A DNA stretch of 60,967 bases, from the IMG/VR virus record IMGVR_UViG_3300046820_000595, positions 1 to 60,967 of that record; one strand, 5' to 3'. Below are positions 17,501-45,485 of this stretch, one piece after another (the stretch's first letter is position 1; each line of letters begins with the position of its first letter). A program made the position numbers and the translations under genes. This DNA comes from a virus (lineage: Duplodnaviria; Caudoviricetes). The notes under the pieces are model-generated. The model was not told the DNA's origin, did not search any database, and saw only the letters and a list, made by a program, of their open reading frames with translations.

Positions 17501-20500
17501 GGAGAAAAAGCTATTGTTGCTACTGAGGTTCTTTCCTTCTTGCATCAAAAGTCTGCGGAAGGCGCTACTTATGGCGATCAATATGAAGAACTTTTTGAGC
17601 TTGCTGCTGGTAAAGGCAGTGCAAGGATACAGACTGCTAAGGCTTATGGTCGCCGTATGCGTTACATGCTTGGTGCTCGCGCTGCGACATCGTTTATGTC
17701 TCCACGTATGCAGAAAATGGTGGAGGTTCTCAACTCCCGCAAAGCTGAAATGGGAGTCAATCGCCGTGCTACAAACATGTCTGAATTGATTGCTCGTTTC
17801 AACCAAGAGCAGTTCCGTGGCAGTAAGAAAGCTATGCAGGATGCAATTAACCAAGCATTTGTTAATCAAGCTGCTGAAGTTAATGATCTGCGCCAAATGC
17901 TTAAGGAGAATGACATTCCTGTTCAGAATATTTTGGATATCAATTTTGAATTAAATACAGTTTCTCTTGTTCCTGAATTTAGCGATTACTACAGACTCAA
18001 ATATGGGCAAAAATCCCTTGATGACCTCAATGACTATTTTAGCCGACTAAACCAAAATGAAGCCGTTGGCAATTTGGCTGACTCCGTGCGCACTGCTCGC
18101 TCTAGAATGGATTCTCTGCGCTTGTTAATGGATACCACCAGTGAGCTAGATCGTCTTGTGGAAATGGCGACAAATGGCAATTTTGACGAATTGTCAGAGT
18201 ATTTGGAGAATCCAGAGAATCAAGGAGTGTTTGACTTGGGTTCTTTGATTCAAGTTCTTAATGGTCTTAAATACGATACGAATATCGCAAAGGGTATTGA
18301 GCGCGACAAAGCTAGAATTGAAAACGCATTTAACGCTGTATTTGATCCTCAGAAACAAGTAGCCAATAAAGATCAGGCTATTGGATACCTGTCCAATTTG
18401 CTTTCTAGGTATTATCAGAAAAATGAAATTGAAACAGATTTGGAATTTGTTGAGCGCATTGCTTCTGAAATGAATCAAAGCAAAGAGGAGTTGATTCAAA
18501 CGCTTCAATCCATGGCGCGTGAACAAGGTGGCATGTTTACATCCAATGAAAACTCTGCTCGTAGCAGCATTGTTGAACGTGATAGCAGGGATAAGCTGCT
18601 GGCATTGCTAAAAGAAAAGAACAATGCTCAACCAGAATCTCCTATTCGCCCAACGTATTACTCTTACGCGCAAGCTGTAAGTGACTACAATGATTTGGTT
18701 CTTAACTACGCCGATATCCTTCTCAATAAGAACTTGAGTGAAGTTGATGAGTTCGGCCGCAACTTTGCCGATGTCACAACTGCCCTAGAGAACCCTGCAT
18801 CAACCCTGACCTTTAATGTCAATTTGTTTGGATACAATAACGAGCTGGCTACAACGGCAATGGGTCATCGTGCCGCAAGAACAAAAGCGCTAAGTGACAG
18901 TCCTGACGATGCTGCATTCAAAGCTACTTTTGCATACCAACAAGCTTTTGTCGGCCGCATTATTAGTAATGACAGAAATGATGCCATTGATAAAGTTGTG
19001 CGCATTGAGTCTAATGCTGCATTCCTTGGTGAAGAGGCTTACAACGATTTCTGGATTGCTCGCCTTTCTGGTGAAGTGCCAACCATTGGCGGCTTGCAAA
19101 TAAGCTACAAGGACTATCATACAACAATGGGCTTTCAACCATTGATCACCAGAGAACGCGCTTCCGATGGCACAGTGGAACCAGAAGACCTTTCTTTGTA
19201 TTTGCTTAAGCTTAGAGTTCCTGATGCAGAAATTGATTTTAGCAGCAAGATTTCTGGCAAGAAGCCTTCTATTCGGAACTTCAGAGATAACTTCTTAAAG
19301 CTAGCTCAAAGTGATGCGGCAACAAAAGAAGCTGCCGCGAGACTGATTACTGAGCAGCTAGTTGATGTTGCGCAAATTGGCAAGTGGATTAGTGACCTGC
19401 AAGACTTGATTGGTTATGACAATAAAACTGGTTTGTTTGATGTTGTTGAGTCATTGAATAACAAGGAAACATTTGCTTCTAAGTTTGCTAAGCAATTGAT
19501 TTATCGCATATTTGACAACAAGCTTGTTGTTGGTGGAACAAAGGGTTTGACCGTTAATGGCGCTGACCCAATGAATCCAACATTGTTTGAGCATTTGCAA
19601 TTGATTCAAAGAGTTTACGACGCAACGCATCCAGGAAAATCTGGTAAAAAGGAAGTCAATAAAGATGATCAAGACTTATTGTTGTCGTCACTTCCAATTA
19701 TCCTTGAGCAGATTGACGCATTGAATAGCGATATTGGTCTGGCGCGGAAAACCAACTCTCGCTTTAAGAGTCAGTATGTTGCTTCTACAATCATGGGCGA
19801 TATTCGCTTGATTCAGGAGCAGGGCGCTGAAGGTATCCGTGCAAACGCCGAGCTAATCAAAGCTATTCAGGATTCTTATTTTGACATCCAAGCAATGGAG
19901 GATGCTGAGTGGCTTACAAATTACCACACTAAAAACGGCCCAGTTGGATACAGCGGGGTCACAGCTCTTCAGCTTATTGATTCCTTTGCTAAAATTCCCA
20001 GTTCTGCAATGAATGAGTATTTTGTTACTCAAGGAATTCAAGGCACTAATGTAGCTGCGTTGCTCCAGAGATACTACCAAGCTCAAGAAATGTATGCAGA
20101 ATTAGGCATGGGTTCTCCAAGGGCTAAGGATAGTGACGGAAAGACTACTTACGCTCTAGACAACCTTACGTTTAACACAGTTGAGCGTGTTGGTGATCGC
20201 CCGAGCGAAACTGACGAGGAGTTTAATGATGATCGCCCAGCCTTGAATAGAGGGCAAGAAACGGCTGGAACTATGCCTCAAGGCTATGAAGGAACGCAGG
20301 AGCAACTTGAATCTCAGAGACGCAAATCCTTGATGGAAGAAGTCAAGAGAATCAAGTCTTGGATGTTTGCTTCTAGTGTAAGTATATTCCAGTTATTTGA
20401 TGAAAATCTTGAATTGAGTTACACCAGCAAAATCAACACGAATAGAGCTAAAACGTTCTTCCGACTTTTTGCTGAGGCGCAAGTAAATGGTGAATCGAAT

Positions 20501-23500
20501 AAAGAATCAAAACAAAGATTGCTTAACTTGGTTAGGGATCAAATGGTCTTCCTTCATTACAAGTATAACACTAATGAGATTTCAGTAGATTCTCCTTTTG
20601 TTGTAATTGCTGACAATCTTTTCAATTACAAGCACCCAATGGAATTTCTGTTGGATGTAGCTGAAGCCATTGCTGAGAAAGAAAGAGCGTTTATCAATGA
20701 TCTTCAGGCTCACTCCAAAGACGTTGGTGTAATGGTTGCCAAGGAACTCGGTAAAAATGTCGAAAGCAAAAAACAAGCTGACTTGAATGGCGATGGAAAC
20801 ATTGACAATGTTAATGCACTTGCTTCTGAGTCTTTGTTGAAATCGCTTCAAGAGGATATTGATAAAGGCAAGCTTGTTGATGGCACATTATTCCATGCGC
20901 AAATGTTCAAGATGGGCAGTAGCCAAAGCATGATGGATTCTATTCTTTTGGAAAAAGCTCCATTGTTTTCATCATTGCTTCAGTCGATGCCCAATTTGAT
21001 CATTTATCAGCCATCCCAATACGAAGGGAAGCGCAATTTCATTGAGAACAATATTGAGTTTGCAACCCTACCTAATAATGACGTTGTTTTGTATATTGGC
21101 AATGCAACTGGGCTTGGCTCTAGTAAACAAGCAGAATTGCTTGAGCGTGTATTGACGGCTCGAATTAAGCAAGAAATTGGCGCAAATGGAACACAGTCTC
21201 CTTTAGCCGCCTCAATTAAGCAAATAGCTTCCACGATTAGAGAGCAAATCAATTACGTTTTCAGCACGACTCCTGAGCGTATTAGACAAATGGAGGAAAA
21301 AGCGTTTAGTGTTATTAACGGAAATCCCAATATTCCTACCAATGTTGTTAATACGCTTGTTGAACGCTATCGCAAAGCGCTTGAGTCCGATGCTGCCAAT
21401 AAGTTATCAACGCTAGGAAATCCAGCAAGTCGCGATAAGTTTGTTTCTGACATTGTTGGTGACAGGGCTGGCGATATGCAGTTGTTCTTGGATAACTTGC
21501 TTAGCGCGGATGTTGAATCCAATGAGAATAGTATCCTTCAAGACATTAAGCTGATTGTTGACATGTTTACCAATCCAGACACATACAAGATTCTTAGCGC
21601 AATCAAGTCTCCTGAAGTTGAATTAACTAGCACTGAACTTGATCCTAAATACAAGGAGTTCTTTGACACAGCAATCAATCGCTTTGTTTCTGAAGAAGTT
21701 CAAAGCTCGATGGTTTACGATATTGCATTGGAGCAGGGCGCTAATAACGCATTTGATGAAGACAATCTTGGAGTGTTCACCCCCGAAGCTGATACTACTT
21801 CATTCATTGTTGATGAAATTATTAGCTCTTGGAGTGACAATTTCCTGAGTGGCGAGCCAAAAGAGGATGCGAATAACGCAAGAAAAGAAAAACAAATTAA
21901 GAGCGTTATTGAGAATTCTCCTTTGGATTTGGTTAAGAGGGTTGTTGATGGATTGATTGTTGTTAATGAGGTTAAGGGTGGCAGAGAATCCGTTAATCTC
22001 ACTTATGATCAAATTGCCACAACGACAAACATCCTGAAAGAAGTAGCACCTACTCCAGACTTTATGTTTGAGTTTGTGTTTACCGAAATGGTTCATGCTC
22101 TTGCTCCTCATAATGAAGCTCGCTCTGTTCTTGATGGAACTGCGCCAGCTCCTATTGGACGGCCGCAAAATGTTTTTGAGCTGCTGCAAACTAGCTCTTT
22201 CCCAGTATTGATGAATTCAACTGGTCAAGGCAATTTCCGTTCAAGCTACAACATTACTAACTTTTACTACAATAAGGCTCCAACCACCAAGTTGTTTGAA
22301 ATGCGCCGTAAAGAAGCGTTTGTAAGCAGCTTGGCATCCGCTACGCCGATTGGCCAAGAATTACTTCAATACGTCTATGATGGCGCTGACAAGTCTGGTC
22401 AATATGCAGTTCAGCGCATTGACTTGATTGACGCTCAAGACACGTTGGCTGCTTTGCGCAATCAAATCAAGGATGTCATTGGAGAGGATATTTTCAATGA
22501 AGCTGTTGAGAATCATGAGACACTTGAATCGAGAAAGCAAAAAGACATCGAGGATGCAAATGCTAGAATTGAAGAAGTAGATCGCCAGATTCAGGCATTG
22601 AGAGAGGATGGCTTAAAGCAATTGGAACAAGTGTTATTGGATAATGCTAGGGGTAATTACAACGAGTCAATTGATACAATTCTAGACCTGGCTGTAAACA
22701 TTGCTGGTATTGTTCATGATATTGGTCAAAAACATCAAGTTGCTACATCCGCTGTTGTTAAGGACGCCTCCAGTGAAAGCGCGTTGGAGAAGTTGAATAA
22801 TTACCAAGAGTCAATTACCCAGCTTGAGCGCATTGACAAAGAAATCAAAAATCATTTGAGAGACAATTCTGGATTGATTTCTGACCCAGTTGCTTACAAT
22901 AAGGCTTATTTTGTTTTGGTGCTAAATCATAATGCTTATGCTGGTCATGCGCGTAACGCTTTAAATTCCTATGCTAATGAAGTTGCTCAATCTATTGCGA
23001 GGAACTCATTCAATAAAGCTTATGATTTGATTTCTGACGTTTCTGCTTTGCAGGAAGCTGTTGTGCAATCAATTTCAAGGGGATTAAATACATACACAAT
23101 TAACGCTGAAACCATTACTCCTCAAAATTCCGCAAGTATTAATCAATCGCTTTCAAGATTTTTGATGACAACTGGACGTAAAGCTAGTGCAATGAAAATT
23201 GCTCGCGATTTGTCCTCTCCCTCAAATGTAAGCGCATTGCTTGAAAGAGTTCAATCTAATCAAGCATTGACCAATTTGATGCAGGAGCAAGTTGATGCAA
23301 TCATCGCAAGCCCAGATACAAACGATGCCGTTAAAGAGCTGTTTAGCCGACTAAAGAAAAAAGAGCTTTCTAAATCAATGAAAGAAATTGTTTCTAAGTT
23401 TGATCCAAAATTATCTTTGAAGCAAATCTCTGACCTAGTTACTACTGAACTACTAAAAAATCCTAAATTAGTAGATAGACTTGGTAAGGAGATGTTTAGT

Positions 23501-26500
23501 GGCGATGTCAAAATGGCATTGAGAAAGAGTGCAGAATTCGCTAGCGCTGAACTAGGCGCTGAAAGAGAAGGCTTTTCTCACATTATTGCTAGTAATATAG
23601 CAAAACAAATTGACGACCTGAATGACCAGAGAGAAGCGCTGCTTAGAGCATTGGCTCGCCTTGAGGTTGAAAGCAAGGGGGAAAGTATGACATTAATGCA
23701 GCTGAGTAAGAAGTTTTCATTTGATGAGAAATCAACTATTGAGCGCATTCAAAGAACTGCTTCTCCTCAATTTGACGCAAGACTCAATCTTGTTTTTGAT
23801 ACAAGAAGACTAGACAATAGCCCAGATTCAATGGCTACCAAGAAGAGAATTCTTAGCAGCGTTGCTATCATCAATGAGGCCGCGAGACTATTCCTTGAGA
23901 AAGAAGGAGAGAACATGCACCGCGCATTGTATGAGGATGTAGAAATGTTTGGTCAAGGATACGACCTTATTCAGGACTTTAACAATGTCATTGACTTGGC
24001 GCGTTTAAGAAACTCTTTGCAATTTAGGGCAGATGAAATGTTTGCATTCCGCGCCGATGAGGCATTGAACACTCTTGTCACTGAAGCCGATGAGAAGGCT
24101 GTTCAATTGTTCGGGGTCACGGTGCAAGACATGGTGACAAACAATATGTCTCCCGCTGTTGTAGAAATTGTCAAGGATGGGCAATTAACTAAATCCCATG
24201 TAATTAGAGAAAGTAAAAATGATGAAATAGAGGAGCGAGAAATGAAGCTAGAGACAATTGGGCTTCATAACATCGTAAGTAAAAAAGAAAGACTAAGAAG
24301 AACCGCATTGTTTATCAATGACCAGTTTTCTTCCAGTATGTTTATGCCAACAACTACCAAGCTGGCGGAGGAGAACAACAAGTCCTACTTGGTTTACAGC
24401 ACTAACGCTAGAAATGAACTAGCTAAGAACAAGAGACAAACCAAAGCCGACTGGAATGTAGATGAGAAGCTCAAAGAATTAATCTTCCAAGCTGCACAGA
24501 ATCCGCCATCTAGGGGAGAAGGGGGACTAAAAACCCAAACACACAAAAAAATCACAACTGATCTCAACAAACAAATCAGCGACTCTTTAGCCAACGAAAC
24601 AAAACTTCCAAAGGAAACTACTGTTGGCGAATTGATCAAGATTGCTACAAACAGATTCACCTCATTCCTTATTAAGAACACAATCAATAAGGAGATGGGC
24701 GCTTTTGCTCAAGGCATCCGTGTGAATGGCTCGATCAAGCGGACACGCGCCATGAGTGACGAGGAATTTGAAACTGCGTTTGATGATGTGTTTGCATTTG
24801 CTTCAAATCCAGACAATGACGCGACCTTGCAGACTGCTGGCTTTGAACGTCTGGGCAAGAAAAAATCAGACTACTCACTGAGTGAAAAGAAAAACTTGGT
24901 GGAGAAAGCTTATGCGGCCGCAATTAAGGAAAACGACTTCCTTGATCCTGACAGCAAGGTTAGCCAGTCTATTGCGTTTTATGAAAAGCAGTTGGTTGAT
25001 ATTGTCACCATGCTTAACAGTGATGAGATTGGACCTCAAATGGGGAACTTTGCAGAATACATCAGAAGCGCTGAGCGTTCAATTGGAAAATTGGTCAACA
25101 TCCAAACAGCTGTAGATTCTGCATCAGAAGTTAATCCATACACTATTAGTCGCGCTGTCATGGACTTAGATTTGAGTCACAATTGGTCACGCCTGTATTC
25201 AATCCTTTACGGACGAGAAACACTCAACAAGCTAGTTACTGGCGCTCTTAACGCTAAAACAGATGACGGGCAAGTTACTACTTTTAGCGCTCACGAAAAT
25301 GCCTTAGTTCGCCGCAAATTTTCAAAAAGTTATGGAGCATACAATGAAGCTCTAAACCTCATTGGATTGCTTGACCATGGATTGGACGGAAGTAGTGGTA
25401 GAAACCGTTTCAGCGCTGAATATCAGTCATTCCAAGATAGAGTTGGAAAGGCATCTAAAAACCTTAATAATGACTTCGTGAAAGGCGCTAAAGCCATGGT
25501 TATTGCTTCGCTCAGAGGTATTGCTGTAGCAAATGAAAAAGACAATGGATCAAATGCTCAATACGCCAACAGAGTTTGGATGTGGGCAAACGCTTGGAAA
25601 AACGGAATGAAGCAACATGAAAAACTTGAGAATGATCGTCAAAAAGCACACGAGCAAGGAAACAAATTCATGCGCTTTAGCAACAGAATCATGAAGAGGG
25701 GGCGCAAGCAAGACAGGGAGAGAGCTGGAACTGAATTGATTAACAATCTCATTACTGATGAAGTAAACTCAATCGTCAACATCATTAACATCAATCACAC
25801 TAAGCCAGAAATGCTTAATGCAAGAATTGAAGCAATGATTAGCAAGCTTGAGTCTGGATACGAACCTTCAGACCTTACTGCAATTAGAGAATATTCTGAC
25901 GCATTGCTGTCTGAATTCACGGAAATCAGTGAAGCATACAGAATTACTCAGGCATTTGCTAGCCGCGACAACAGAACTAAAATCTCTGATGAGCAACTAC
26001 TTGACTCCACAGTCATTTCTGATGTTTTGTCTAAAAATTATTCTGTGTTCCCATTGCGTTTTGGATACGTAAAGAATCCATTGCACGTAAGCCATGAGGC
26101 ATACAGCCACAATAAAGCTCCAATTACGGACTTTATTGGAATGGAACAAGGTGTGATTAACTACCAAGGAAAACGAACTGGCTTAATGGAAGAAGAGTCG
26201 GATAAAGATGCTATTCGACCACTGGACTTAAATCCCTTCACGGCTCCTGACCAAATCGCTAAGGATGCAATGTATCGCATGTATGTTGCGCCTACTTACA
26301 AAGTAATCAACAAGTTGCTCGGCAAGAGTTCAACCGACAATGCAAGACAATCTATTACAACAAATGGATTTTTGCACGGCGTAGCTAATGCTACAAACAC
26401 AGATAGCGAAACAACTTCTAAATATCCATATATCGCGGCATACATCATGGATACAATCGACAAAACGATTAAAAATGACAAGCCAGAGAATGTTGAAGAT

Positions 26501-28027
26501 AGTATTCTTGCTGATTACTTAAGAGCTAGCGCAACTTTAATTGCTGTTAAATACCTTGTTGAACCATGGCAAATTGTTTCTCAGGGCATTATTCCAGCAA
26601 TAAGCAAGTATTTAACAATCAAGTTTACAAATTTAATTGTAGCAACACAAAAAGACACAGATATTTTGATGGAGGCTTACAAACATGCCGCAATGGGATA
26701 CAGAAACCCCAATAGCCAAATAGCTAGATTTGTAAAAGAAAACAGCATCAAGAATTATAAGTGGTTAACTGAGGGAACTGACACGCGCCAAGAGCAAATC
26801 TCTTTAACGAGATACGAAGGCGAATCAAAAATTTCCTCTGCATCCAAAAAGATTCTTTCTACAACTCAAAAAATTGGAGAAAAATACTTAGACACAGTAA
26901 TTGGTGGGCCAGAAAGAGCAATGATTCAATCTATTTATGCTTTTGAATTATTCAATCAACTGCAATTGGTAATGGGTCCTGAAGCTCCCGCTACACTTGA
27001 TGAAATGTTTGAAATGGACCCAAGCGAGATCAATACATTAGCAAAAACCAAAGCTGACATCATGGTCACTGATTTCATGGGTCTTGGAGACAAAGCGAAA
27101 AAAGCTGCGGCTTACAACATCAAATCAAAAAGCGCTATTGTTAACATGCTTATTCAGTCGTTTACTAGATTTGGAAACCACACATCTACAGTTGAAGCAA
27201 ATAGAGGTGTCTTTTCTGAGTATTTGTTCAACAATTACATGAGAAGAAGGGGTTACGCAAACAGCGAGTTTACAAAAGATGCTATTGAAAATATTGTTGG
27301 AACAACTCTTCAAAACAGCTTGTTCTTTTTGACTAAATTGCCATTTCTTGTTCCTGCCGCTACGTATGCAGCTAGCATTCTTTATGAATTTGTTGAAGAA
27401 CTATTCTTTGATGACGATGAAGAAGATGAAGATAATTTGGAAAGCATTGCTCAAAGAGCTTCAGAATGGGCGACATCATTAACTCAGTTTGATGAAAATG
27501 GATTCTTGCCATTGCAAATGCTCAAAGAACAAATGTTTCCTAAAAACATGAGCGTAACAAATCCAAGCACTATTGCCGAAGAAGGTTATAGCGGTGCTTA
27601 TTTTGAAATGATTAAAAAAGCTGGAGTTGATATAGCTTGGGATACTACTGGTGTATTACCGAATTCAACAGCGGCATCATTGCTTAGTTACATACCGGTT
27701 AAATCTTTTGTAAGACTTGGAATTGGATCGGCAAAGGACAAGTTTACTGAAAGCGAAAAAAGTGATTACAGCGAAATGCAAAGAAAATCATGGCTAGCTG
27801 AGCGCTTTGCAGAAACATTCATTATGCCAATTACAGAACCTGCTATAGCAGCAAACAATGTTAAGAATCTAATGCTTAACTACGCTCTGCCTAAAGACGG
27901 TTACGAAGGAATTAGCACTGGTGAGTTCCTTAACGGTATTGTAACTGGACTGCTTGGAACTAGAAATAGTCGGCGCTCAGTGCCTAAACGTCACGCCGAA
28001 CAAGGTGGTTGGGGAGTTGAGAACTAA
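11531..28027 (+). CDS. Giant 5498-aa protein, probable ejected internal/polyvalent-type protein with zincin-like metallopeptidase domain(s)
   Basis: Uninterrupted 16.5-kb ORF; Gly/Ala-rich hydrophobic segments in aa ~390-740; HEIFH at 15749-15763; degenerate EELLH near 17345; no Cys seen. Confidence 0.8.
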   Translation: MINPFEDEIFTAPSIAKAPDDAIATEEDDKSKEEVDKNYDYYGINLPDDKNPFKKIDAASWFTNPEARKQQAATLAEQIADEYENSDVTVPVIRNGKVEQVKASNNGVLTDAGQHALAQTLMMIDQASKDPSGGARKNPLTGKTEAAFGSKFLTPYNADEKLAEREKKRVAGEKGEYGATEYQLSNDQVFDYGHVSKVIDAYAKINDVKPDELNPESFDAKSFLDLRGKVKQALPEGMLELGAELDQTKAPVLDDKSQKIFDKALGRYFAEKKMGDKLVDVYDGQPIVNYEALAETGDLKRFESELNGLELAPSAKKIFLSSFKKEFEGQAASLLLKQAQGDIYSDDSTKPILEAAEKGQSFYNLLKEDPYALQSTGSNTLDFMKRVADHATSITAGATSSIGSIGQMFLAGGAKAMGFDEYAADVVSGIATVSDQIGAFRETRGFGKDQLDLGLFSVTTGDIHQLISEGAIAFATMGASALLSSSRIAATTTIKGAVNIGLQSAAKKITEKSAKSALSSLSQNLIKSQSVIGSVWKNASKARTLDNVLATTLEGSFRSAASAWGESYQKNIDKGLSNVDAFNDSTGQAVANGLATFVAGAIMNSIAPGLDKINVAPDSGLSLTQAIKNTIANRAAQKSISSGLKSFRNNIKNRNDLVKGVADTIREEASKQGLKNYLGGVAVQGLGEGIEESMDAALANALDQYLNNSEEARKEFEKKGYWNQIIKAGFLGAIMGSGMSTISRTSDRNLQIAEDAKAAMSSFIKKVPELAKYADQEIIVQGAKKDAPEIKTTINQILQNGTLDQQVEAIANIGKTRAQNLLSPTKVGGTQGTGITPAADAQTSLAENKLPTADATPSLETGSAPVEETVSPFKKSATGAVDFKTAEFNDTDKGVSFEVSSNAPKSQGLQLKIAATPKTVDGNVEVEWSIEKETQPNSGQYQKMRANGRDSAVKAFGEEFVAGIEASQKQAAGADPVASQSAVTALNSQLAQLRPTQQPTTTETNAEAQPKEEAPTEPQSFTLTDNTGGQSNVKALVSKKENLSSYAYEKAHGTKAPAGTLEPKAKTTTATVMVNGNPQSVPVTSYTIDGKDADLHSVTIGDNETVFFKKSDSVNAIKGAVQGASRVMMKGELASKNDYAEQLQSTPPPTQKPESKQPAKYSPESSEQTTESGAVFTTRTRLSTGQEQVLWKKTKYGRKVGDKWDAGFPETVVSVENKTTTGMPEEYTVAEVSKILHGERKNGEVELTIRDMTPEEITEAKSKMEKANAQRRELGIKEEVVPEIPVAKTPATEASKPKEKSQAPAPSKKKKEEVDEDDGPIKGVNKLAEPLRKIARKFKGIASSIGAQIIIVKDDADLQQQMKNLGFDDQAIKNVGDSPMFFSPDDNVIIVRSNRANESNFEKGIKHEIFHAVEKMFAASDAGKKLLGEIDIAKLVNDPEVVEYMKKEYSKSYPDMTNNQKFGEITRAFVAGKLHKNTLGQTAFQKYLKAFLKFARKFTKKNTELKSYLDGLEKFYLDTLQDYKAEAGIVASESSGFKSWIGGILASGIKAAKMKLSGFESTSSIKASDEDIARIADEVRGDIIEQVNAAAAFNKPLNAVTLLENISKNINDTHLGINKTMDANSKIAVLQNVLKGLEGNDIDQTVKDAIASAMESVNSDRSDLLMSVPDESQEVLDSVEEKKQLSSWTGVRRYIKAEDLFSDVNVVNRRGFPDQDSEVGEQNEYTNSYISVDFNKEAQSYPDLGLNPGDVVEMLDSLGNVTGVLVYSHSVEVASQQDGVKRLQYRFIKGETVANGKITPFAAIRQAQYSQEFYDMFAKSGIAKTMFGDVNGRTVINTPEGLIKMVFESLVAKNAKGKAVIKQGDKTLSFKDIFVFQKDKDNKSLTPFYFNAGDGKIYVDPEKLSTNFAFIESSALNSDGKKQSTALLVASTVRAAIEEELLHLATVGTFTQQELAEFADDLLKRNAFEGIVYQVRKMQRITSPIDSMTDGEKAIVATEVLSFLHQKSAEGATYGDQYEELFELAAGKGSARIQTAKAYGRRMRYMLGARAATSFMSPRMQKMVEVLNSRKAEMGVNRRATNMSELIARFNQEQFRGSKKAMQDAINQAFVNQAAEVNDLRQMLKENDIPVQNILDINFELNTVSLVPEFSDYYRLKYGQKSLDDLNDYFSRLNQNEAVGNLADSVRTARSRMDSLRLLMDTTSELDRLVEMATNGNFDELSEYLENPENQGVFDLGSLIQVLNGLKYDTNIAKGIERDKARIENAFNAVFDPQKQVANKDQAIGYLSNLLSRYYQKNEIETDLEFVERIASEMNQSKEELIQTLQSMAREQGGMFTSNENSARSSIVERDSRDKLLALLKEKNNAQPESPIRPTYYSYAQAVSDYNDLVLNYADILLNKNLSEVDEFGRNFADVTTALENPASTLTFNVNLFGYNNELATTAMGHRAARTKALSDSPDDAAFKATFAYQQAFVGRIISNDRNDAIDKVVRIESNAAFLGEEAYNDFWIARLSGEVPTIGGLQISYKDYHTTMGFQPLITRERASDGTVEPEDLSLYLLKLRVPDAEIDFSSKISGKKPSIRNFRDNFLKLAQSDAATKEAAARLITEQLVDVAQIGKWISDLQDLIGYDNKTGLFDVVESLNNKETFASKFAKQLIYRIFDNKLVVGGTKGLTVNGADPMNPTLFEHLQLIQRVYDATHPGKSGKKEVNKDDQDLLLSSLPIILEQIDALNSDIGLARKTNSRFKSQYVASTIMGDIRLIQEQGAEGIRANAELIKAIQDSYFDIQAMEDAEWLTNYHTKNGPVGYSGVTALQLIDSFAKIPSSAMNEYFVTQGIQGTNVAALLQRYYQAQEMYAELGMGSPRAKDSDGKTTYALDNLTFNTVERVGDRPSETDEEFNDDRPALNRGQETAGTMPQGYEGTQEQLESQRRKSLMEEVKRIKSWMFASSVSIFQLFDENLELSYTSKINTNRAKTFFRLFAEAQVNGESNKESKQRLLNLVRDQMVFLHYKYNTNEISVDSPFVVIADNLFNYKHPMEFLLDVAEAIAEKERAFINDLQAHSKDVGVMVAKELGKNVESKKQADLNGDGNIDNVNALASESLLKSLQEDIDKGKLVDGTLFHAQMFKMGSSQSMMDSILLEKAPLFSSLLQSMPNLIIYQPSQYEGKRNFIENNIEFATLPNNDVVLYIGNATGLGSSKQAELLERVLTARIKQEIGANGTQSPLAASIKQIASTIREQINYVFSTTPERIRQMEEKAFSVINGNPNIPTNVVNTLVERYRKALESDAANKLSTLGNPASRDKFVSDIVGDRAGDMQLFLDNLLSADVESNENSILQDIKLIVDMFTNPDTYKILSAIKSPEVELTSTELDPKYKEFFDTAINRFVSEEVQSSMVYDIALEQGANNAFDEDNLGVFTPEADTTSFIVDEIISSWSDNFLSGEPKEDANNARKEKQIKSVIENSPLDLVKRVVDGLIVVNEVKGGRESVNLTYDQIATTTNILKEVAPTPDFMFEFVFTEMVHALAPHNEARSVLDGTAPAPIGRPQNVFELLQTSSFPVLMNSTGQGNFRSSYNITNFYYNKAPTTKLFEMRRKEAFVSSLASATPIGQELLQYVYDGADKSGQYAVQRIDLIDAQDTLAALRNQIKDVIGEDIFNEAVENHETLESRKQKDIEDANARIEEVDRQIQALREDGLKQLEQVLLDNARGNYNESIDTILDLAVNIAGIVHDIGQKHQVATSAVVKDASSESALEKLNNYQESITQLERIDKEIKNHLRDNSGLISDPVAYNKAYFVLVLNHNAYAGHARNALNSYANEVAQSIARNSFNKAYDLISDVSALQEAVVQSISRGLNTYTINAETITPQNSASINQSLSRFLMTTGRKASAMKIARDLSSPSNVSALLERVQSNQALTNLMQEQVDAIIASPDTNDAVKELFSRLKKKELSKSMKEIVSKFDPKLSLKQISDLVTTELLKNPKLVDRLGKEMFSGDVKMALRKSAEFASAELGAEREGFSHIIASNIAKQIDDLNDQREALLRALARLEVESKGESMTLMQLSKKFSFDEKSTIERIQRTASPQFDARLNLVFDTRRLDNSPDSMATKKRILSSVAIINEAARLFLEKEGENMHRALYEDVEMFGQGYDLIQDFNNVIDLARLRNSLQFRADEMFAFRADEALNTLVTEADEKAVQLFGVTVQDMVTNNMSPAVVEIVKDGQLTKSHVIRESKNDEIEEREMKLETIGLHNIVSKKERLRRTALFINDQFSSSMFMPTTTKLAEENNKSYLVYSTNARNELAKNKRQTKADWNVDEKLKELIFQAAQNPPSRGEGGLKTQTHKKITTDLNKQISDSLANETKLPKETTVGELIKIATNRFTSFLIKNTINKEMGAFAQGIRVNGSIKRTRAMSDEEFETAFDDVFAFASNPDNDATLQTAGFERLGKKKSDYSLSEKKNLVEKAYAAAIKENDFLDPDSKVSQSIAFYEKQLVDIVTMLNSDEIGPQMGNFAEYIRSAERSIGKLVNIQTAVDSASEVNPYTISRAVMDLDLSHNWSRLYSILYGRETLNKLVTGALNAKTDDGQVTTFSAHENALVRRKFSKSYGAYNEALNLIGLLDHGLDGSSGRNRFSAEYQSFQDRVGKASKNLNNDFVKGAKAMVIASLRGIAVANEKDNGSNAQYANRVWMWANAWKNGMKQHEKLENDRQKAHEQGNKFMRFSNRIMKRGRKQDRERAGTELINNLITDEVNSIVNIININHTKPEMLNARIEAMISKLESGYEPSDLTAIREYSDALLSEFTEISEAYRITQAFASRDNRTKISDEQLLDSTVISDVLSKNYSVFPLRFGYVKNPLHVSHEAYSHNKAPITDFIGMEQGVINYQGKRTGLMEEESDKDAIRPLDLNPFTAPDQIAKDAMYRMYVAPTYKVINKLLGKSSTDNARQSITTNGFLHGVANATNTDSETTSKYPYIAAYIMDTIDKTIKNDKPENVEDSILADYLRASATLIAVKYLVEPWQIVSQGIIPAISKYLTIKFTNLIVATQKDTDILMEAYKHAAMGYRNPNSQIARFVKENSIKNYKWLTEGTDTRQEQISLTRYEGESKISSASKKILSTTQKIGEKYLDTVIGGPERAMIQSIYAFELFNQLQLVMGPEAPATLDEMFEMDPSEINTLAKTKADIMVTDFMGLGDKAKKAAAYNIKSKSAIVNMLIQSFTRFGNHTSTVEANRGVFSEYLFNNYMRRRGYANSEFTKDAIENIVGTTLQNSLFFLTKLPFLVPAATYAASILYEFVEELFFDDDEEDEDNLESIAQRASEWATSLTQFDENGFLPLQMLKEQMFPKNMSVTNPSTIAEEGYSGAYFEMIKKAGVDIAWDTTGVLPNSTAASLLSYIPVKSFVRLGIGSAKDKFTESEKSDYSEMQRKSWLAERFAETFIMPITEPAIAANNVKNLMLNYALPKDGYEGISTGEFLNGIVTGLLGTRNSRRSVPKRHAEQGGWGVEN
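18038..18051. promoter_or_regulatory. Dispersed palindromic box TTTAGCCGACTAAA (intragenic)
   Basis: Identical to the 7876 copy; inside the giant ORF, encoding FSRL. Confidence 0.6.
23342..23355. promoter_or_regulatory. Dispersed palindromic box TTTAGCCGACTAAA (intragenic)
   Basis: Identical to the 7876 copy; inside the giant ORF, encoding FSRL. Confidence 0.6.
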
Positions 28028-28389
28028 ACGTCTTGCCTTTTAACCGCATCAAGTAGAATTGTTCCTGACTCTAAGCGTTTTGTGATAATCTCCCTTGCTG
28101 TTGGTGTTACTGGTTTCTTGCTCAACAAGAAGCGGATAGCATCAATAAGCAGGGGGATAACGCGCAATGATTCAAATTTGACCATCTGTGGAGTGATTAC
28201 GGACACAACTGGAGTGGCTGCATTAACTTCGTCTAATGGTGCGTCATCATTTGATAACGCCGCTGAATCGCCATTCAGGTCTTCAATTTGGTGCGTAACT
28301 TGTAGTTCTTCATGGCTAGTTACTTCTGGTGGAGCAGCTAGTTGTTCTTCGTCAATTACTTGTAGTTGTTGTTTTTTTGGTCTTGCCAT
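28024..28389 (-). CDS. Hypothetical protein
   Basis: A-rich leader before ATG; stop codon overlaps the convergent giant ORF stop. Confidence 0.7.
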   Translation of the reverse strand: MARPKKQQLQVIDEEQLAAPPEVTSHEELQVTHQIEDLNGDSAALSNDDAPLDEVNAATPVVSVITPQMVKFESLRVIPLLIDAIRFLLSKKPVTPTAREIITKRLESGTILLDAVKRQDV

Positions 28390-28409
28390 AATGTTTGTTT
28401 GTTAAATTT

Positions 28410-28490
28410 TGGTGGTGCTAGAATGGGCCACCGCTCCAACCTATGCCGAACCCTCTAGCTGGGAGAACAGAAAGGAACGTATTCCTTCGG
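28410..28490 (-). ncRNA. Candidate small structured RNA with acceptor-like stem and ACCA end
   Basis: Minus strand GCTAGAG...TTCTAGC-ACCACCA, preceded by an AAGGAA-TACG-TTCCTT hairpin. Confidence 0.4.
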
Positions 28491-28495
28491 CAAAA

Positions 28496-28786
28496 TTATT
28501 GCATATTGAGGAAATTGGGTTTTGGGGAAACAAGCCATCCCTCTTCTTTAGCTTGCTTTGAATTGTGGTGAACCCATTCATGGCATTCATGGCACAATGG
28601 TAGGATTACACAGCAGAAAGCTCTTGTCGTGCGCCTAAACGGATGATGTGGCTCAAAGTCTCCATTGAAATGTTTCCAATTGTTTCCCTTGATTCCGCAA
28701 CGAGCGCAAGCTGATGGGATATACACCTGCAAAATGCGCTTGTATTGCTCAAGCCATTCAGCTCGCTTCTCTGATACGTGTCTCAT
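28496..28786 (-). CDS. HNH-like Zn-binding endonuclease
   Basis: CARC...HH...LPLCHECHEWVH. Confidence 0.7.
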   Translation of the reverse strand: MRHVSEKRAEWLEQYKRILQVYIPSACARCGIKGNNWKHFNGDFEPHHPFRRTTRAFCCVILPLCHECHEWVHHNSKQAKEEGWLVSPKPNFLNMQ

Positions 28787-29061
28787 AAGTCCAATGCTTT
28801 CTTAACAGCCTTTAGGCAAATGTCATAAATCATCTTGTCTTTTTCTGACAAGGCTCTTCCTTCATCAATCGCGCTATCTCTAATATGATTCATTGCAAGT
28901 TGTGTGGCTTCCAATAATTCTGGAGATGCGGCGGCTAAATAAGCATCAGCATGACGAGAGATAAACCCATCAAAGACAACATGAATTCTGTTTTCAACTT
29001 TAACAAGTTTTTCGTGGTGTATAGTAACCCTCCATGGAGTAGCGCTAATTACTTGGTTCAT
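28783..29061 (-). CDS. Hypothetical phage protein
   Basis: TPW...ADAYLAAASPELLEA pattern common in small phage ORFs; ATGA-coupled. Confidence 0.7.
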   Translation of the reverse strand: MNQVISATPWRVTIHHEKLVKVENRIHVVFDGFISRHADAYLAAASPELLEATQLAMNHIRDSAIDEGRALSEKDKMIYDICLKAVKKALDL

Positions 29062-29468
29062 TTTACTGCTTCAATGTAGTGATATGGAGAGCCTTGAGGT
29101 TTGCCAAAAAATGAATCCGACCATGCAAATTCACCATCAATATATCGGCCTACAGCATAATGAATAGGTGACACAGAAGTCAAAGAGGTTCCTTTATAAA
29201 CCCATTTATTAAGGCCTATTGGCAATGTAGGGAGCGGAATGTCTTGCAAGCCAGGCGGGAACTCATTGTCGCTTTCACTTTGCTCGACAAGAACTTCTGA
29301 AATAACTGGCTTAGACTCAACATAACCAACACATTTCAGGATTTCAAATTTTTGATTGACCTGATAATTCGCCAATCTTTTAGCTTCGGCAATAGCGCTT
29401 TCAAGGTTTTCATGCTTGCGGCTTGGGCCTGATCCATGCCTGTTGTAAACGTAATAGTATTCTTTCAT
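29058..29468 (-). CDS. Hypothetical protein
   Basis: ORF coupled to neighbours; start set at ATG 29468. Confidence 0.65.
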   Translation of the reverse strand: MKEYYYVYNRHGSGPSRKHENLESAIAEAKRLANYQVNQKFEILKCVGYVESKPVISEVLVEQSESDNEFPPGLQDIPLPTLPIGLNKWVYKGTSLTSVSPIHYAVGRYIDGEFAWSDSFFGKPQGSPYHYIEAVK

Positions 29469-29469
29469 A

Positions 29470-30123
29470 TTAGTGTTTTGATTTAGGGAGTTCATCTTTG
29501 TCGAGCGTCTTCTTGAAGCCCACATTGGCGGCTGTATGAAAGACAACAATGCCTTCTGGATTCATAAACCCTGGAGCAGCTTGGCTTCCAGTAGCTCCCA
29601 AGTAAGTAAGGGTAGCTTCGATACGCGCCGTATCAAAAATACCTTTGTAAAGAACAGGAACAAGACCTACGCATGGAGGAAGAACATCTTGATATTTTAA
29701 CACTTGTGGATTTTGACTTGGAATGATTTGAGGTTCTTGGCCGTGCAAGCACCAGCGAGTTACATTAAAGAGGCTCAAGCGCCTTTCTGAGAGGCCATAC
29801 TTCCTTTGGATGCCTTGCCCCCACCATTCGCCAAAATGCGTTCCTACGCCAAGTTTGAGCAATTCCTGAGCATTGTCGTAAACCCATGAGGCAAATCCAA
29901 AATTGTCATCAATGAGAGTGATCCATTTGGTTCTACTGCCAGCAAGCATTTTGTAGTTTAAACCATCTGCTCCAAGCCATCCAGTAATAGCGTAAGGGTC
30001 ATCTTTGTGACTGCCTTGCGTAATGTGAATACTAGCATTGGTTCCGTCAATTTTCTCGGTGACGATGCACTCTCTGGATAGTCTGCCCATTTTGGGGAAT
30101 TCTTTAAATGTTGGTGTATTCAT
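29470..30123 (-). CDS. RNA ligase family (ATP-dependent nucleotidyltransferase domain)
   Basis: Motif I TEKIDGTN, GSRT, motif III FGEWWG, motif IV PEGIVV, C-terminal FKK. Confidence 0.85.
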   Translation of the reverse strand: MNTPTFKEFPKMGRLSRECIVTEKIDGTNASIHITQGSHKDDPYAITGWLGADGLNYKMLAGSRTKWITLIDDNFGFASWVYDNAQELLKLGVGTHFGEWWGQGIQRKYGLSERRLSLFNVTRWCLHGQEPQIIPSQNPQVLKYQDVLPPCVGLVPVLYKGIFDTARIEATLTYLGATGSQAAPGFMNPEGIVVFHTAANVGFKKTLDKDELPKSKH

Positions 30124-30145
30124 AATTTGATTTGGTTAAAATTGA

Positions 30146-30470
30146 ATTGCATTAAGTGTCATGTTTTAAAGTCTTTGTGGACAGGCACTCTTCCCATTTA
30201 AGGGATTTATCCTGGGTCGCCACCCCAGCCTTAATGCAATAACCGATTAGTCGGTCAGACTGGCTGCACTCTGTCCAGAGCGTGGTTCGTCTTTAGCCAT
30301 TGACTATCTGGTTCACCGATCACCAGCAGGTTTCTCGCGTCCAAGAAAATCATTCCCTACTCCGTTGCGCTAAACGGGATCACACGTTAATTCGTGCTCG
30401 ATGTTGCGCGACCGACCGCGTGGGAAGGTTCGTGTTGCACCCGTGGTGAAACAGAGGCGTTCTGAGAAAG
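30146..30470 (-). ncRNA. Candidate structured RNA(s) upstream of the RNA ligase gene
   Basis: ~350-bp gap without a credible ORF; perfect 11-bp inverted repeat 30146-30156/30230-30240 enclosing inner hairpins; further hairpins at 30242-30255 and 30261-30299. Confidence 0.5.
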
Positions 30471-30481
30471 TTTTCATGGTT

Positions 30482-30760
30482 TCATCGTGGTGTTGCCAGA
30501 GATTTTGGTGTGATCCACCATTCTTGATATTTCAAAATTTCGCGCCCTGATTTGTCCACCCCAGACGGCTCGAAGCCTCTGAAGTATATTCCATGCGTCG
30601 AAGCCGAAATGATTTCAGGGGTGCGGATTTCAGCGAGTATTCGCCCCATCGTAGTCGTTGGGTCATCCCACCATAGCAATCGCTTTTCATAGCAGGTCAT
30701 AGTCCCGTTGATTGGTTTCGATGGTTTTGGAAGTTGTTTTTGTAGTTTTCCGGTAATCAT
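30482..30760 (-). CDS. Hypothetical protein
   Basis: ORF on the operon strand ending YQEWWI; start uncertain. Confidence 0.55.
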   Translation of the reverse strand: MITGKLQKQLPKPSKPINGTMTCYEKRLLWWDDPTTTMGRILAEIRTPEIISASTHGIYFRGFEPSGVDKSGREILKYQEWWITPKSLATPR

Positions 30761-30799
30761 AATCAAAGAGGTTAATAAGCGAATGACAGCAGGCGCTCT

Positions 30800-31018
30800 T
30801 TATGTCGACTTAGCTATTGTAAGCGCAACCAATAAAGCATCTACGTCTTCCCATCTCATGCAACCAGCAAGCTTTATATTTGTTTTTTCTTTTCCCATAA
30901 CTATAAATGAGCATCCTTCTAAATTAGACCAGTCATTTACAACTACTTCAATGTTATCATTTTTGACAATGACTTCGCTGACTTTGTTTGTCATTGTTTT
31001 TAGTTCTAAATCTTGCAT
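30800..31018 (-). CDS. Hypothetical protein
   Basis: AACAAACAAAACAAC leader before ATG, like other minus-strand genes. Confidence 0.65.
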   Translation of the reverse strand: MQDLELKTMTNKVSEVIVKNDNIEVVVNDWSNLEGCSFIVMGKEKTNIKLAGCMRWEDVDALLVALTIAKST

Positions 31019-31039
31019 GTTGTTTTGTTTGTTGAAATT

Positions 31040-31600
31040 TGGTGGCCTGTGCGCATCGGCATTGTGAGCTTGACTTATCCTTGGTTGGTTACGACCAACA
31101 CTCAGAGGGATTTAGTTGCAGGCTTTCATCCGCAGACCGTTTTATTCTCTGTCTTTCCAGAGTGTCAAACATGCGTATTTATTAACCTTCTCCAGCATGT
31201 TAGAGTATGAAAAGTTTTGTGGCTAGATGGCACAACCTTGGATCGAATCTGCCATTTTCATAGTTAATCCATCACTATTGAAACCACATTCCAACCCCCG
31301 ATCAGGTCGCTCATTCAGATGTCGTGTTTCATGCCTGAAACCGTATGCTCTATTGAATGCCCTCATTTCGGAGGCTGGGATGTGGTCTCTGTCTTTCCAG
31401 AGTGTCCCGATTTTATACAAGCTATTGGAGAATTGGTTTCTCCGCATTTTCCAAAACTTGCTTTGGGGCCGTGCCTTCCGTCTCGTTGCGGCCATGCGCT
31501 TCTACTTTCGTAGGGACGACGCAGAAATCTTTGGTAAGCGTTTTTTAGGATGCGCTTCCCCCTTTTGCCCCTGCTCGTTGAGTCCTCCCAATCCGCGAGG
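31040..31600 (-). ncRNA. Candidate cluster of structured RNAs
   Basis: GC-richer 560-bp gap with many hairpins, a 19-bp stem, a 21-nt direct repeat (31146-31166, 31386-31406) and an ACCA-terminated stem. Confidence 0.55.
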
Positions 31601-31605
31601 AAATC

Positions 31606-31619
31606 TTTAGTCAACTAAA
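31606..31619. promoter_or_regulatory. Dispersed palindromic box TTTAGTCAACTAAA
   Basis: Abuts the primase-helicase stop codon. Confidence 0.7.
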
Positions 31620-33446
31620 TTACGCCCATGGAGCTTTGGAATACATAGGGCGAACAACCCCAGGATTAGCAAGGAAGCGCTTTGTTTCTTTGTCAAACCA
31701 CGTGTTGGTCATCGGTATCTCGCCAGTAGCTCGCTGCTTGCGACAAATCAATTTGCCACATGGAGTTGATTCCCAAAACTCTTGAATTGCTGTTTCTGGA
31801 TAGTCATTGGCTTTCATCTCGGCCATGCGTTCATGTTTGGATACATCACGCCAAACAGTAATAATGTTGTCAGGCATATTACCCCACTCGCTAGCGCCTT
31901 GAATCTCGGCAATTGCGGGTGGACTACTAATGCCTTCTCCACTCTTGCGTGGGTGAGCAACAACATGAACATGCACGGGATAGTTGGAGGCAAAGACACG
32001 AATAGCATCAATAGCTTCAGCTTGGGCTGTATTGTCGCCGCGATCAACATCCATAGTCATAACATTGTCGATGACAAAGTTGGTAACTCCATAGCGTTTG
32101 TGCGCATGGATGAACATATTGATGAGCTTTAATGGGTTGGCTTTTTCCCTGCTCTTGTAGATGAATACGTTTTCACTGAGATACTTGTATGCCACCTCGA
32201 AATCAAGGGAGTTAACAATGTCTCTATTGCCAGTCATGTTCATCAGGATTGAACCAAATGTCCGTTCTGGCGGCTGCTCAAACGAAGCAACTACACTCAT
32301 CACCCCACGCGCAGCTAAATTCGCTACTTGGTTTTGAACTGCTTGTGATTTGCCTTGGCTGGTGTAACCAAACCAAAGGGTAATCTCATGCTTGCGGAAT
32401 GTGAGGTCAAAGCCAGGAATAAAGAATGGGTCACCATCGAGAAGGTAGTCACCGCGCATGAAGTCCATAACGCCGTGCTTCATCTCTACAGCATCAACAA
32501 TCTCGTCAAGCTGACCCTTAGCAGTGGATTCAATCAAGTTGGCAATCTCATTGCCACGATTGGCCTTAAGCATGTCATTGGCATCTTTAAGGGGGAGATT
32601 GACAATGATGCAACGATCAACGCCAAGTCGAGCAGCTACATCAGCAGCGCATTTACGACCAGCATTGTCGTTATCCATGATAAGAACAATAGTGTCAAAG
32701 TAAGAAAGATACTCGTAATCCTCCTTGATCCAGTTCATGTTTGACACTCCAGAGGGAATTGAAACGGCTGGCAATCCAATTTCATACATTGCCATAGCGT
32801 CCCATTGACCTTCAACAATGATCAAACGATCTGAATTTGAGGATGGATCACAAACATCTTTACCAAACAAGTTGTGGATTGGGTTAACGCTGCTCCACAT
32901 AACCTTCTCATTGTTTGGCATCCAATGTTTAGTAAGGCTAAGTTTAGAGTCGCAGTCATAGTGGGGGAAGATTAGCTCGCCTTTAGCGCCAGATTTGACG
33001 TTGTAGGCTTCTAATGTCTTTTGACTAATCTTGCGCGATGCAGCGTAATCAATGCAATCCTTCGTCAATGGCATTAGCGAATTGGCCAACTCATCATAGT
33101 TGGTTGACTTGCTAGAGCCAGAGAAGTTTTGAATTGGGGATACATTAAGGAAATTACCTAACCATGCAATGCTAGCAGGAATAGACATGCCTTTAACCAT
33201 GGATACCAGCTTCCAAGGACTACCCTTGATTGATGGATTAGCATGGTCATAGAACTGCCCAATGTTGTATGCTTTGGTTGAGATACTGAGGCTTTCACCA
33301 GGATTGCCATCAATATCGCCAATGCGATAGCAACCAGTTTGCTTTTTAGCATTTGGGAATAGCGTAAGAACAAACTCATCAATGCGAAATTCTAGCTTCG
33401 CTTTGATTTCCTGTAGATCGTAAATGGTTTTGGTTTCTTTAATCAT
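31620..33446 (-). CDS. DNA primase-helicase (T7 gp4/Twinkle-like)
   Basis: TOPRIM IVEGQWD and MDNDNAG; SF4 helicase Walker A GYTSQGKS, FVIDN, VAHPRK, KQR. Confidence 0.93.
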   Translation of the reverse strand: MIKETKTIYDLQEIKAKLEFRIDEFVLTLFPNAKKQTGCYRIGDIDGNPGESLSISTKAYNIGQFYDHANPSIKGSPWKLVSMVKGMSIPASIAWLGNFLNVSPIQNFSGSSKSTNYDELANSLMPLTKDCIDYAASRKISQKTLEAYNVKSGAKGELIFPHYDCDSKLSLTKHWMPNNEKVMWSSVNPIHNLFGKDVCDPSSNSDRLIIVEGQWDAMAMYEIGLPAVSIPSGVSNMNWIKEDYEYLSYFDTIVLIMDNDNAGRKCAADVAARLGVDRCIIVNLPLKDANDMLKANRGNEIANLIESTAKGQLDEIVDAVEMKHGVMDFMRGDYLLDGDPFFIPGFDLTFRKHEITLWFGYTSQGKSQAVQNQVANLAARGVMSVVASFEQPPERTFGSILMNMTGNRDIVNSLDFEVAYKYLSENVFIYKSREKANPLKLINMFIHAHKRYGVTNFVIDNVMTMDVDRGDNTAQAEAIDAIRVFASNYPVHVHVVAHPRKSGEGISSPPAIAEIQGASEWGNMPDNIITVWRDVSKHERMAEMKANDYPETAIQEFWESTPCGKLICRKQRATGEIPMTNTWFDKETKRFLANPGVVRPMYSKAPWA

Positions 33447-41829: not shown

Positions 41830-41834
41830 TAGTA

Positions 41835-45481: not shown

Positions 45482-45485
45482 CAAT

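Follow-up and report, generated by a model that had tools for sequence, protein, structure and literature searches.

IMG/VR record IMGVR_UViG_3300046820_000595 (60,967 bases, the entire viral record, at an estimated completeness of ~92%, and hereafter the window) carries a stand-alone RNA ligase gene in a minus-strand operon with three noncoding gaps, which an initial annotation had read, together with the ligase, as one candidate RNA-based module, whose RNAs the ligase might repair or circularize or which might serve as decoys or antitoxin mimics. The first part of that description stands, in that the gaps hold conserved, strand-specific structured RNAs, at least one of which is apparently highly abundant, but the coupling to the ligase does not, as these structured RNA elements travel independently of it. 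One of them, a rod-like element that we call E3, is an apparently undescribed RNA family of dozens of uncultured, mostly freshwater, phages.

The ligase operon and its three noncoding gaps

The operon spans 33446 down to 28024 and meets a 5498-aa open reading frame (ORF) tail to tail. Read along the minus strand, a primase/helicase gene (33446..31620) is followed by a gap of 601 bases (gap 3, 31619..31019), ORF72, ORF94, a gap of 358 bases (gap 2, 30481..30124), the ligase gene (30123..29470), ORF163, ORF92, a 96-aa HNH gene, a gap of 106 bases (gap 1, 28495..28390) and ORF121. The initial annotation had located the three gaps and the 217-aa ligase correctly, and on the same strand. The features discussed below are the following:

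31620..33446, minus strand, primase/helicase (phrog_239, 2.3e-84; Toprim_2, 9.4e-10), the conserved gene upstream of the variable region
31531..31604, minus strand, M1, a conserved stretch close behind the stop codon of the primase gene (identity of 84-85% to L047 and L054)
31410..31525, minus strand, M2, a structured module homologous to L102, with compensated hairpins, upstream of P0/E3
31387..31406, minus strand, the P0 hairpin of E3 (CUCUG-GAAAGA-CAGAG), within an exact 21-nt repeat at 31386-31406
31283..31386, minus strand, E3, a rod-like structured RNA (model R2, 91.7 bits, vs 29.2 bits for the opposite strand)
31146..31166, minus strand, the second 21-nt P0 repeat, preceding E5
31041..31145, minus strand, E5, a rod-like module (GGUCUGC-NNR-UGAAAGC ... 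GCACAGGCC), its structure drawn by eye with no statistical test
30254..30355, minus strand, E4, a conserved structured stretch upstream of E2, 78% identical to the intergenic stretch 11398-11499 of L007
30240..30258, minus strand, a P0-type hairpin (CUGACCGA-CUAA-UCGGUUA) that abuts E2
30147..30239, minus strand, E2, a 93-nt leader element closed by a stem of 9 bp, inside which three stems are predicted
29470..30123, minus strand, RNA ligase of 217 aa, consisting of just a nucleotidyltransferase domain (motif I, KIDGTN)
28496..28786, minus strand, small HNH endonuclease, 96 aa (phrog_740, 1.7e-7)
28390..28495, minus strand, gap 1, a hairpin and an A-rich leader (CCACCAAAAUUUAACAAACAAA) preceding ORF121 (folding z -0.56)

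The ligase matches the PF09414 profile over residues 18-194 (E 1.7e-9, 38.5 bits, with a curated cutoff of 27) and phrog_548 (8.4e-25), and has neither an NCBIfam nor a PDB-sequence match. Motif I of nucleotidyltransferases, KxDGxN, contains the catalytic lysine, and the string T-E-K-I-D-G-T-N, which fits this motif, is readable in the DNA. Profiles of the AAA_33 kinase, the PNK3P phosphatase and RtcB each have no match in the whole record, so that the earlier statement that the ligase has no polynucleotide kinase/phosphatase partner holds at profile sensitivity.

Large gaps are not unique to the surroundings of the ligase, since the ORF list contains other gaps of 270-600 bases elsewhere in the window (e.g., 41392-41834, 45110-45635 and 52042-52649). 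The three gaps had all been described as hairpin-dense, which is true of one of them: relative to dinucleotide shuffles, excess folding is found in gap 3 only (z -5.97, vs -1.28 for gap 2 and -0.56 for gap 1). Searches of 27900-31800 with Rfam 15, the models of which include Y_RNA, the phi29-like phage pRNA, twister-sister, hatchet, GOLLD, ROOL and HEARO, gave no match at the gathering thresholds or even at E<=5. The gaps contain two ORFs, of 35 aa (30370-30477) and 90 aa (31223-31495), with a family match for neither; the longer one overlaps E3, copies of which differ in length from 83 to 175 nt. A blastn search of the 5.5-kb region found no match among GenBank phages. From other contigs, 15 related loci were retrieved via the primase and 80 via the ligase, and comparing these by blastn shows islands in the gaps that are more conserved than the flanking genes. 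The gaps also have motifs in common, as the initial annotation had noted, namely an exact 21-nt repeat that occurs twice in gap 3 (0 expected) and twice in the whole window, and a 22-nt leader common to gaps 1 and 3, the second copy of which (31024-31045) is the leader of ORF72.

E3, a rod-like RNA of uncultured phages

In gap 3, the islands 31386..31355 and 31316..31283 pair as the arms of a single long helix, and both recur, at 88-100% identity, in loci with ligases that are just 53% identical. The terminal helix (P1) of the resulting element, E3, is 17-18 bp in length (ACCACAYUCCAGCCUCCG / CGGRGGUUGGARUGUGGU) and leads into a two-base bulge, which is CA in most copies and AA in the window copy. 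Beyond the bulge lie a short helix with a G.G mismatch, an asymmetric loop in which one G faces an invariant AGCGA, and a further helix (P2), followed by a variable distal domain of ~25 to 115 nt (83-175 nt for the whole element). Folded together with its P0 hairpin, E3 gives a z of -6.08.

Covariance analysis of homologous loci supports this structure, with covariation beyond that of any of 500 shuffles. In 20 hand-collected copies, 97.7% of cells are paired, 8 pairs are doubly compensated, and the covariation amounts to 0.283, vs 0.133 in shuffles, with 0/500 shuffles as high; control structures in which the partners were slid by 1-3 columns leave 33-44% paired in the same copies. Among 50 distinct copies, aligned by fitting to model R2 and thus leaning towards the structure, double changes occur at 13 of the 28 pairs, and again none of 500 shuffles reached any measure. 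Pairing across P1, P1b and P2 stands at 97.7%, and in the divergent copies of L010 and L004 most of P1 has been rewritten (CGCGCUCAUUG / CAGUGGGUGCG) with the AGCGA loop retained. The operon strand scores 84-102 bits across copies, vs 14-36 bits for the opposite strand, and a G-U pair at columns 12/204 is kept in 50/50 copies, which together assign the structure to the transcript, or else to the operon strand of the DNA. The internal loops were also inspected by eye as a possible K-turn or box C/D motif, and this idea was dropped, as the required G.A/A.G pairs are missing; the covariation of R21 and Y157 as a Watson-Crick pair also counts against it. The long distal domains (171-175 nt, e.g., L107 666-838) contain an internal hairpin (CUGACUAGCUAUCGGUCAC) similar in form to the 5' P0 hairpins, which suggests that P0-type hairpins are modules of the RNA, not signals in the DNA.

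A search pattern for the 3' arm collected 23 stretches from IMG/VR viral contigs and 39 from metagenome contigs. As this pattern fixes 23 bases, the sequence conservation of E3 is overstated and the family is probably wider; divergent copies in L010 and L004 and second copies in L103 and L167 are examples of such further members. The same pattern had no match in 185,579 prokaryote species (one genome each), P0 plus E3 had none by blastn in 50,697 GenBank phage records, and Rfam at E<=1 on 8 E3 loci returned only one transfer-messenger RNA (tmRNA) and one tRNA, with nothing at E3 itself. E3 is found at one place per record in 17 of 18 records (G015 has two copies), in records with a GC content of 42-63%. 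The ORFs flanking it are mostly co-oriented with it, and no protein family is conserved as its neighbor, none occurring in more than 5 of the 22 loci compared; the genes downstream are mutually unrelated and begin at distances from a few tens of nt to >1 kb. Five complete E3-bearing records (G000, G003, G004, G005 and G007) have only one family common to all, which has no Pfam match. Among the 15 loci retrieved via the primase, model R2 matches 7.

Several of the E3 copies lie close to tRNA genes: tRNA-Met or tRNA-Ile is found 100-250 nt upstream in L010, L004 and L001, and a tRNA with a 48-nt insert in its anticodon region (L104 4154-4255) lies 87 nt upstream of another copy. Two E3-bearing contigs encode tmRNAs (L103 2924-3287 and L117 1570-1955). 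L102 and L108 have in common a stretch, ~10-100 nt downstream of E3, whose end resembles the T-arm and the 3' acceptor strand of a tRNA (GGAGGUUCGAAUCCUCCCGCCACA), where ARAGORN calls no tRNA. tRNA mimicry as a general feature of E3 was rejected, as only 2 of 50 distinct copies have a T-loop hairpin, defined by a UUCRANY loop on a stem of 4 bp or more.

E3 resembles YrlA and Y RNAs, as these are described by Chen et al. (2014, PMC4201824), in its size range (80-175 nt), in 5' and 3' ends that form a long irregular stem with conserved bulges, in its modular distal domain, and in its location near tRNA genes. It was rejected as a Y RNA on the grounds that TROVE/Ro60 (PF05731) occurs in 0 of 18 records, with the control detected in Deinococcus and Bacteroides; in the alignment, the E3 5' strand has no motif like the GGUCCGA of Y RNAs, and T-loop hairpins, expected of the tRNA-like domain of YrlA with its D- and T-arms, occur in just 2 of 50 copies. 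A closer comparison in terms of source is the structured-RNA catalogue drawn from IMG/VR itself, which reports 8,495 DNA-virus candidates in its supplements, likewise intergenic motifs of viral contigs backed by covariation (Fremin, Bhatt and Kyrpides 2023, PMC10690425). E3 may already be among these as an unnamed entry; the words ligase and primase are not present in the main text of that paper.

P0-associated units and strain variation

E3 is preceded by a short hairpin, P0. Of the 48 copies that extend far enough upstream, 45 have a hairpin with a stem of at least 5 bp whose end coincides with the start of P1, leaving no spacer between the two. The P0 stem varies widely in sequence among copies (GACCGA, GACAGAC, GGCACUC, CUCUG and others), and the GACCGACGUAAUCGGUC form is found just 1-2 times per record, beside E3 or E5. 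As the 21-nt repeat occurs just twice in the window, P0 was rejected as a general phage promoter, and a scan for a hairpin followed by ACCACA found no further convincing copy. The terminator scan placed no site at P0, and no U-tract follows it in the printed sequences of the aligned copies. Of 42 distinct E3 copies, 3 have a sigma-70 consensus promoter (at least 10/12 matches) in the 120 nt preceding them, vs 7 of 802 control windows.

The second copy of the repeat precedes E5, which is followed by the A-rich leader and then by the start codon of ORF72, and the order P0-E3 to P0-E5 recurs in L106, L115/G008 and L122. E5 ends 25-40 nt ahead of a start codon in the window and in G008. Upstream of E3, a pattern search with M2 matched one viral contig (L102) and no other. 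M1, at 84-85% identity in L047 and L054, is more conserved than the adjacent primase DNA, which is ~70% identical in the same two loci.

In gap 2, the 77-nt core of E2 (30231..30155) is 91-92% identical in L001, L002, L004 and L010, in comparison to 72-77% for coding DNA. The closing stem has the sequence UUGCAUUAA/UUAAUGCAA in two copies (window and L007) and GACUUCUA/UAGAAGUC in the four remaining ones, so that five pairs are doubly compensated, yet between two haplotypes only. In all 6 copies E2 ends 15-23 nt ahead of a start codon (23 nt, for the ligase, in the window), although the gene that follows differs: it is the ligase in the window, a duplicated 5' fragment of the ligase in L007, and in the other four (L001, L002, L004 and L010) a homologue of the 96-aa HNH gene. 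A pattern search for E2 returned 5 viral contigs, none of them new, and model R1, built on E2, found its 6 training copies only among 94 sources. E4, upstream of E2, shows compensated hairpins by eye in 2 sequences only, and a hairpin and leader related to those of gap 1 are likewise seen by eye in L007. L007 is the closest relative by ligase, and its arrangement at 8845-10176, in which E2 is followed by a second copy of the ligase 5' end (~24 codons, as far as the catalytic lysine), then by a 164-aa ORF with no Pfam match and then by the full ligase, looks like an insertion that duplicated its target.

One search found 19 sequencing runs, four of which were compared with the window; the sole RNA run, X8, is a metatranscriptome available as contigs, from a strain 95-99% identical to the window. 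A 456-nt X8 contig over 31385-31510 (M2 and P0) has a depth of 142.9, and the seven other contigs for the stretch have depths of 2.1-8.7, whereas in the DNA run X3 the same parts are equally deep (146.5 and 144.7). This depth is a hint of an abundant RNA, not proof of one. X8 has no coverage at 28000-30207 and 30944-31311, which is no sign that these parts are silent.

The same runs reveal where strains differ. The deep X8 contig departs from the window sequence exactly at 31385, and X3 and X4 break at 31385/31386; near 30240, X3 and X4 have loose ends at 30241-30242 and an X8 contig ends at 30237. Both break sites are the 3' edges of the two P0 hairpins, and their recurrence in three runs indicates that related strains carry different units behind the same hairpin. 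Gene content also varies in the region after the primase among the 15 relatives, which carry ThyX, an acyl carrier protein, DUF3310 and tRNA-Met/tRNA-Ile genes there. In the X3 strain, ORF92 is absent (279 bases skipped, window 28780-29060) and the ORF94 region 30480-30810 is replaced by 364 other letters.

Interpretation of the locus

We consider, with moderate confidence, that the gaps are exchangeable, hairpin-delimited cassettes of stable RNA transcribed with the operon strand, with the E3 rod as a binding platform and E2 as a cis-acting leader. On this view, small cassettes of structured RNA follow one another in the variable accessory region downstream of the primase/helicase, and the locus is not a device centred on the ligase. 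Each main unit (E3, E5 and E2) starts with a short covarying P0 hairpin running into a long terminal helix. In E3, this helix carries invariant irregularities (the two-base bulge, the G.G mismatch and the G/AGCGA loop), with the far end free to vary. We infer that E3 is a stable RNA that could act in trans, its conserved rod offering a binding platform to a conserved host or phage factor and its distal domain serving as the variable effector part. P0 would be a common boundary for processing and/or recombination, at which strains may exchange units, and E2 most likely acts in cis, as the 5' leader of whichever gene comes next.

What makes this proposal of interest is that the E3 helix is near-constant in phages of 42-63% GC that have almost no genes in common, and is absent from both the prokaryote genomes and Rfam. 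Conservation of this sort is usually seen in RNAs that bind tightly to some conserved machinery of the cell, which makes E3 a promising candidate for a new RNA interaction between phage and host. RNA genes that behave like gene cassettes, swapped at a common hairpin, would also take beyond promoters, and into structured RNAs, the idea put forward for the promoter-early stem-loops (PeSLs) of T4-type phages, in which strong sigma-70-like promoters are joined to terminator stem-loops (Arbiol et al. 2010, PMC2839356). By that account, PeSLs are likewise short conserved hairpin motifs between small accessory genes in a hypervariable region, and strain differences begin and end at them, as they do here at 31385/6 and 30237-30242 in X3, X4 and X8. 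The two differ in that here a consensus promoter accompanies only 3 of 42 E3 copies, no U-tract follows P0, and behind the hairpins come long structured RNAs of conserved sequence, which are not part of PeSLs as described there.

Several points weigh against our proposal. The pattern used to collect E3 inflates its apparent conservation and hides divergent members, and E2, E4, E5, M1 and M2 are each based on 2-6 sequences. The RNA evidence comes from one metatranscriptome, in which contig depth, a single figure per contig, is a poor measure of expression, may sum over several strains, and could also reflect DNA present in the library. In addition, the abundant contig covers M2 and P0 but not E3, which is there replaced by other sequence, and no RNA ends, processing sites or partner were observed. 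With a promoter upstream in only 3 of 42 copies, independent transcription of E3 is not shown. Finally, the 3' strand of P1 contains GGAGG/GGGGG and AUG/GUG and the 5' strand CCUCC, and the pairing of these strings would also fit a translational switch acting in cis.

This last point belongs to an alternative that we regard as possible but rather doubtful, namely that E2, E3 and E5 are all cis-acting leaders that regulate the genes downstream of them, by sequestering ribosome binding sites, by stabilizing the mRNA, or by processive antitermination. The distances of E2 (6/6 copies) and of E5 (window and G008) from the next start codon would suit leaders, E3 is co-oriented with its operon, Shine-Dalgarno-like and anti-Shine-Dalgarno-like strings are paired within P1, and in the 3 of 42 E3 copies with a strong sigma-70-like promoter this lies 31-50 nt upstream. 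The put antiterminator of HK022 consists of two stem-loops just downstream of an early promoter, which make RNA polymerase resist terminators; the position of E3 relative to promoters is ambiguous in this respect. However, the genes that follow E3 have no relation to one another and begin anywhere from a few tens of nt to >1 kb away, and the AUG/GUG inside P1 opens no conserved ORF. A helix of near-invariant sequence across phages of such different GC content would also be unusual for a leader, and the depth of the RNA contig suggests an RNA species that accumulates.

The module proposed by the initial annotation, in which the ligase repairs, joins or circularizes these RNAs, or the RNAs are decoys that work with the ligase, appears improbable. 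It has in its favor that the ligase sits between RNA-bearing gaps in the window, and that a second lineage (L110, L114, L143, L157 and L158) has a ligase, 52-55% identical, ~1.5 kb from E3. In addition, because P0 abuts P1 in 45 of 48 copies, an RNA running from P0 to P1 would have its ends meeting at a nick within a stacked helix, and nick-sealing ligases of the Rnl2 type act on substrates of this kind. The linkage on which the proposal depends is not borne out, however. PF09414 occurs in 3 of the 17 E3-bearing viral records and in 1 of the 4 among them that are at least 90% complete, a ligase lies in the available flank of 5 of the 39 metagenome stretches carrying E3, and, conversely, model R2 matches 2 of the 78 loci retrieved via the ligase. 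E2 lies ahead of the ligase or its fragment in 2 of 6 copies, and ahead of the HNH gene in the remaining 4. The L110/L114-type lineage (G004) has structural genes in common with the window, and common descent can thus explain the repeated proximity of ligase and E3. Furthermore, the abundant RNA contig passes through P0 from M2 upstream, which leaves P0 as a 5' end unsupported, and the profile searches of the record reveal no end-healing enzyme.

Comparison with known ligases leads in the same direction. The tRNA repair of T4-type phages pairs an RNA ligase with a polynucleotide kinase/phosphatase. The present locus resembles such systems in having a phage RNA ligase of the PF09414 superfamily, but differs in that there is no kinase/phosphatase or RtcB, the ligase is a 217-aa catalytic domain alone, and its cultured relatives are found in DNA replication/recombination modules. 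These relatives occur in 82 GenBank phage records, all at <60% identity (37 are Mycobacterium and 9 Caulobacter phages), and in the two cultured phages inspected the related ligase lies among replication/recombination genes with annotated gaps of ~200 nt or less. The ligase is best read as one of the ordinary accessory genes in phage replication modules, located among the cassettes by coincidence. A more speculative idea, to which we attach very little weight, would keep the ligation and drop the linkage: P0-E3 and its sister units would be DNA-encoded rods whose two ends face each other where P0 joins P1, as at a nick in a continuous helical stack, and would be closed into circular or end-protected RNAs by a nick-sealing ligase (that of the phage, if it has one, or else a host enzyme), and such RNAs would persist through infection. 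If true, these would be phage-encoded, viroid-like circular RNAs in exchangeable cassettes.

We also find it hard to credit that E3 functions at the DNA level, as a replication origin or primase-loading hairpin by the primase gene, a packaging site or a recombination site. Its single copy per genome, its position directly downstream of the primase/helicase gene in the lineage of the window, the strain breakpoints at hairpins, and its location ~1.1 kb from the end of G004, the sole record with terminal repeats, would all be consistent with such a role. The strand-specific G-U pair in 50/50 copies, the strong strand asymmetry of the model scores and the preservation of pairing next to the bulges by compensatory changes argue for RNA instead, although they may still leave a hairpin in single-stranded DNA, and most E3 copies lie away from a primase gene. 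That E3 is a self-cleaving ribozyme of a new class cutting at the P0/P1 junction seems most unlikely, for while its invariant nucleotides are in internal loops and not in helices, the conserved block begins exactly at that junction, and the same phage has a Twister-P5 ribozyme elsewhere, E3 matches no Rfam ribozyme family, is a simple rod with no pseudoknot detected, and has no cleavage evidence.

Some features of the window outside the operon may be noted in addition. The sole protein family common to the five complete E3-bearing records is represented by a 944-aa ORF (1026-3860, plus strand), which has neither a Pfam nor a PHROG match. The 5498-aa ORF that meets the operon (11531-28027, plus strand) has homologous giant ORFs in G003 (47281-65214) and G004 (9969-23153), both of which are complete E3-bearing records; it was considered as a virion RNA polymerase and rejected, having no Pfam, PHROG or PDB-sequence match. 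The window encodes tRNA-Met (CAU) at 22-96 on the plus strand and tRNA-Arg (UCU) at 40823-40899 on the minus strand. The Twister-P5 ribozyme (Type-P5 twister) lies at 53414-53467 on the minus strand, in a 448-base stretch (53058-53505) free of ORFs of at least 90 aa, and matches its model over the full length with 51.2 bits, vs a gathering score of 37.6.

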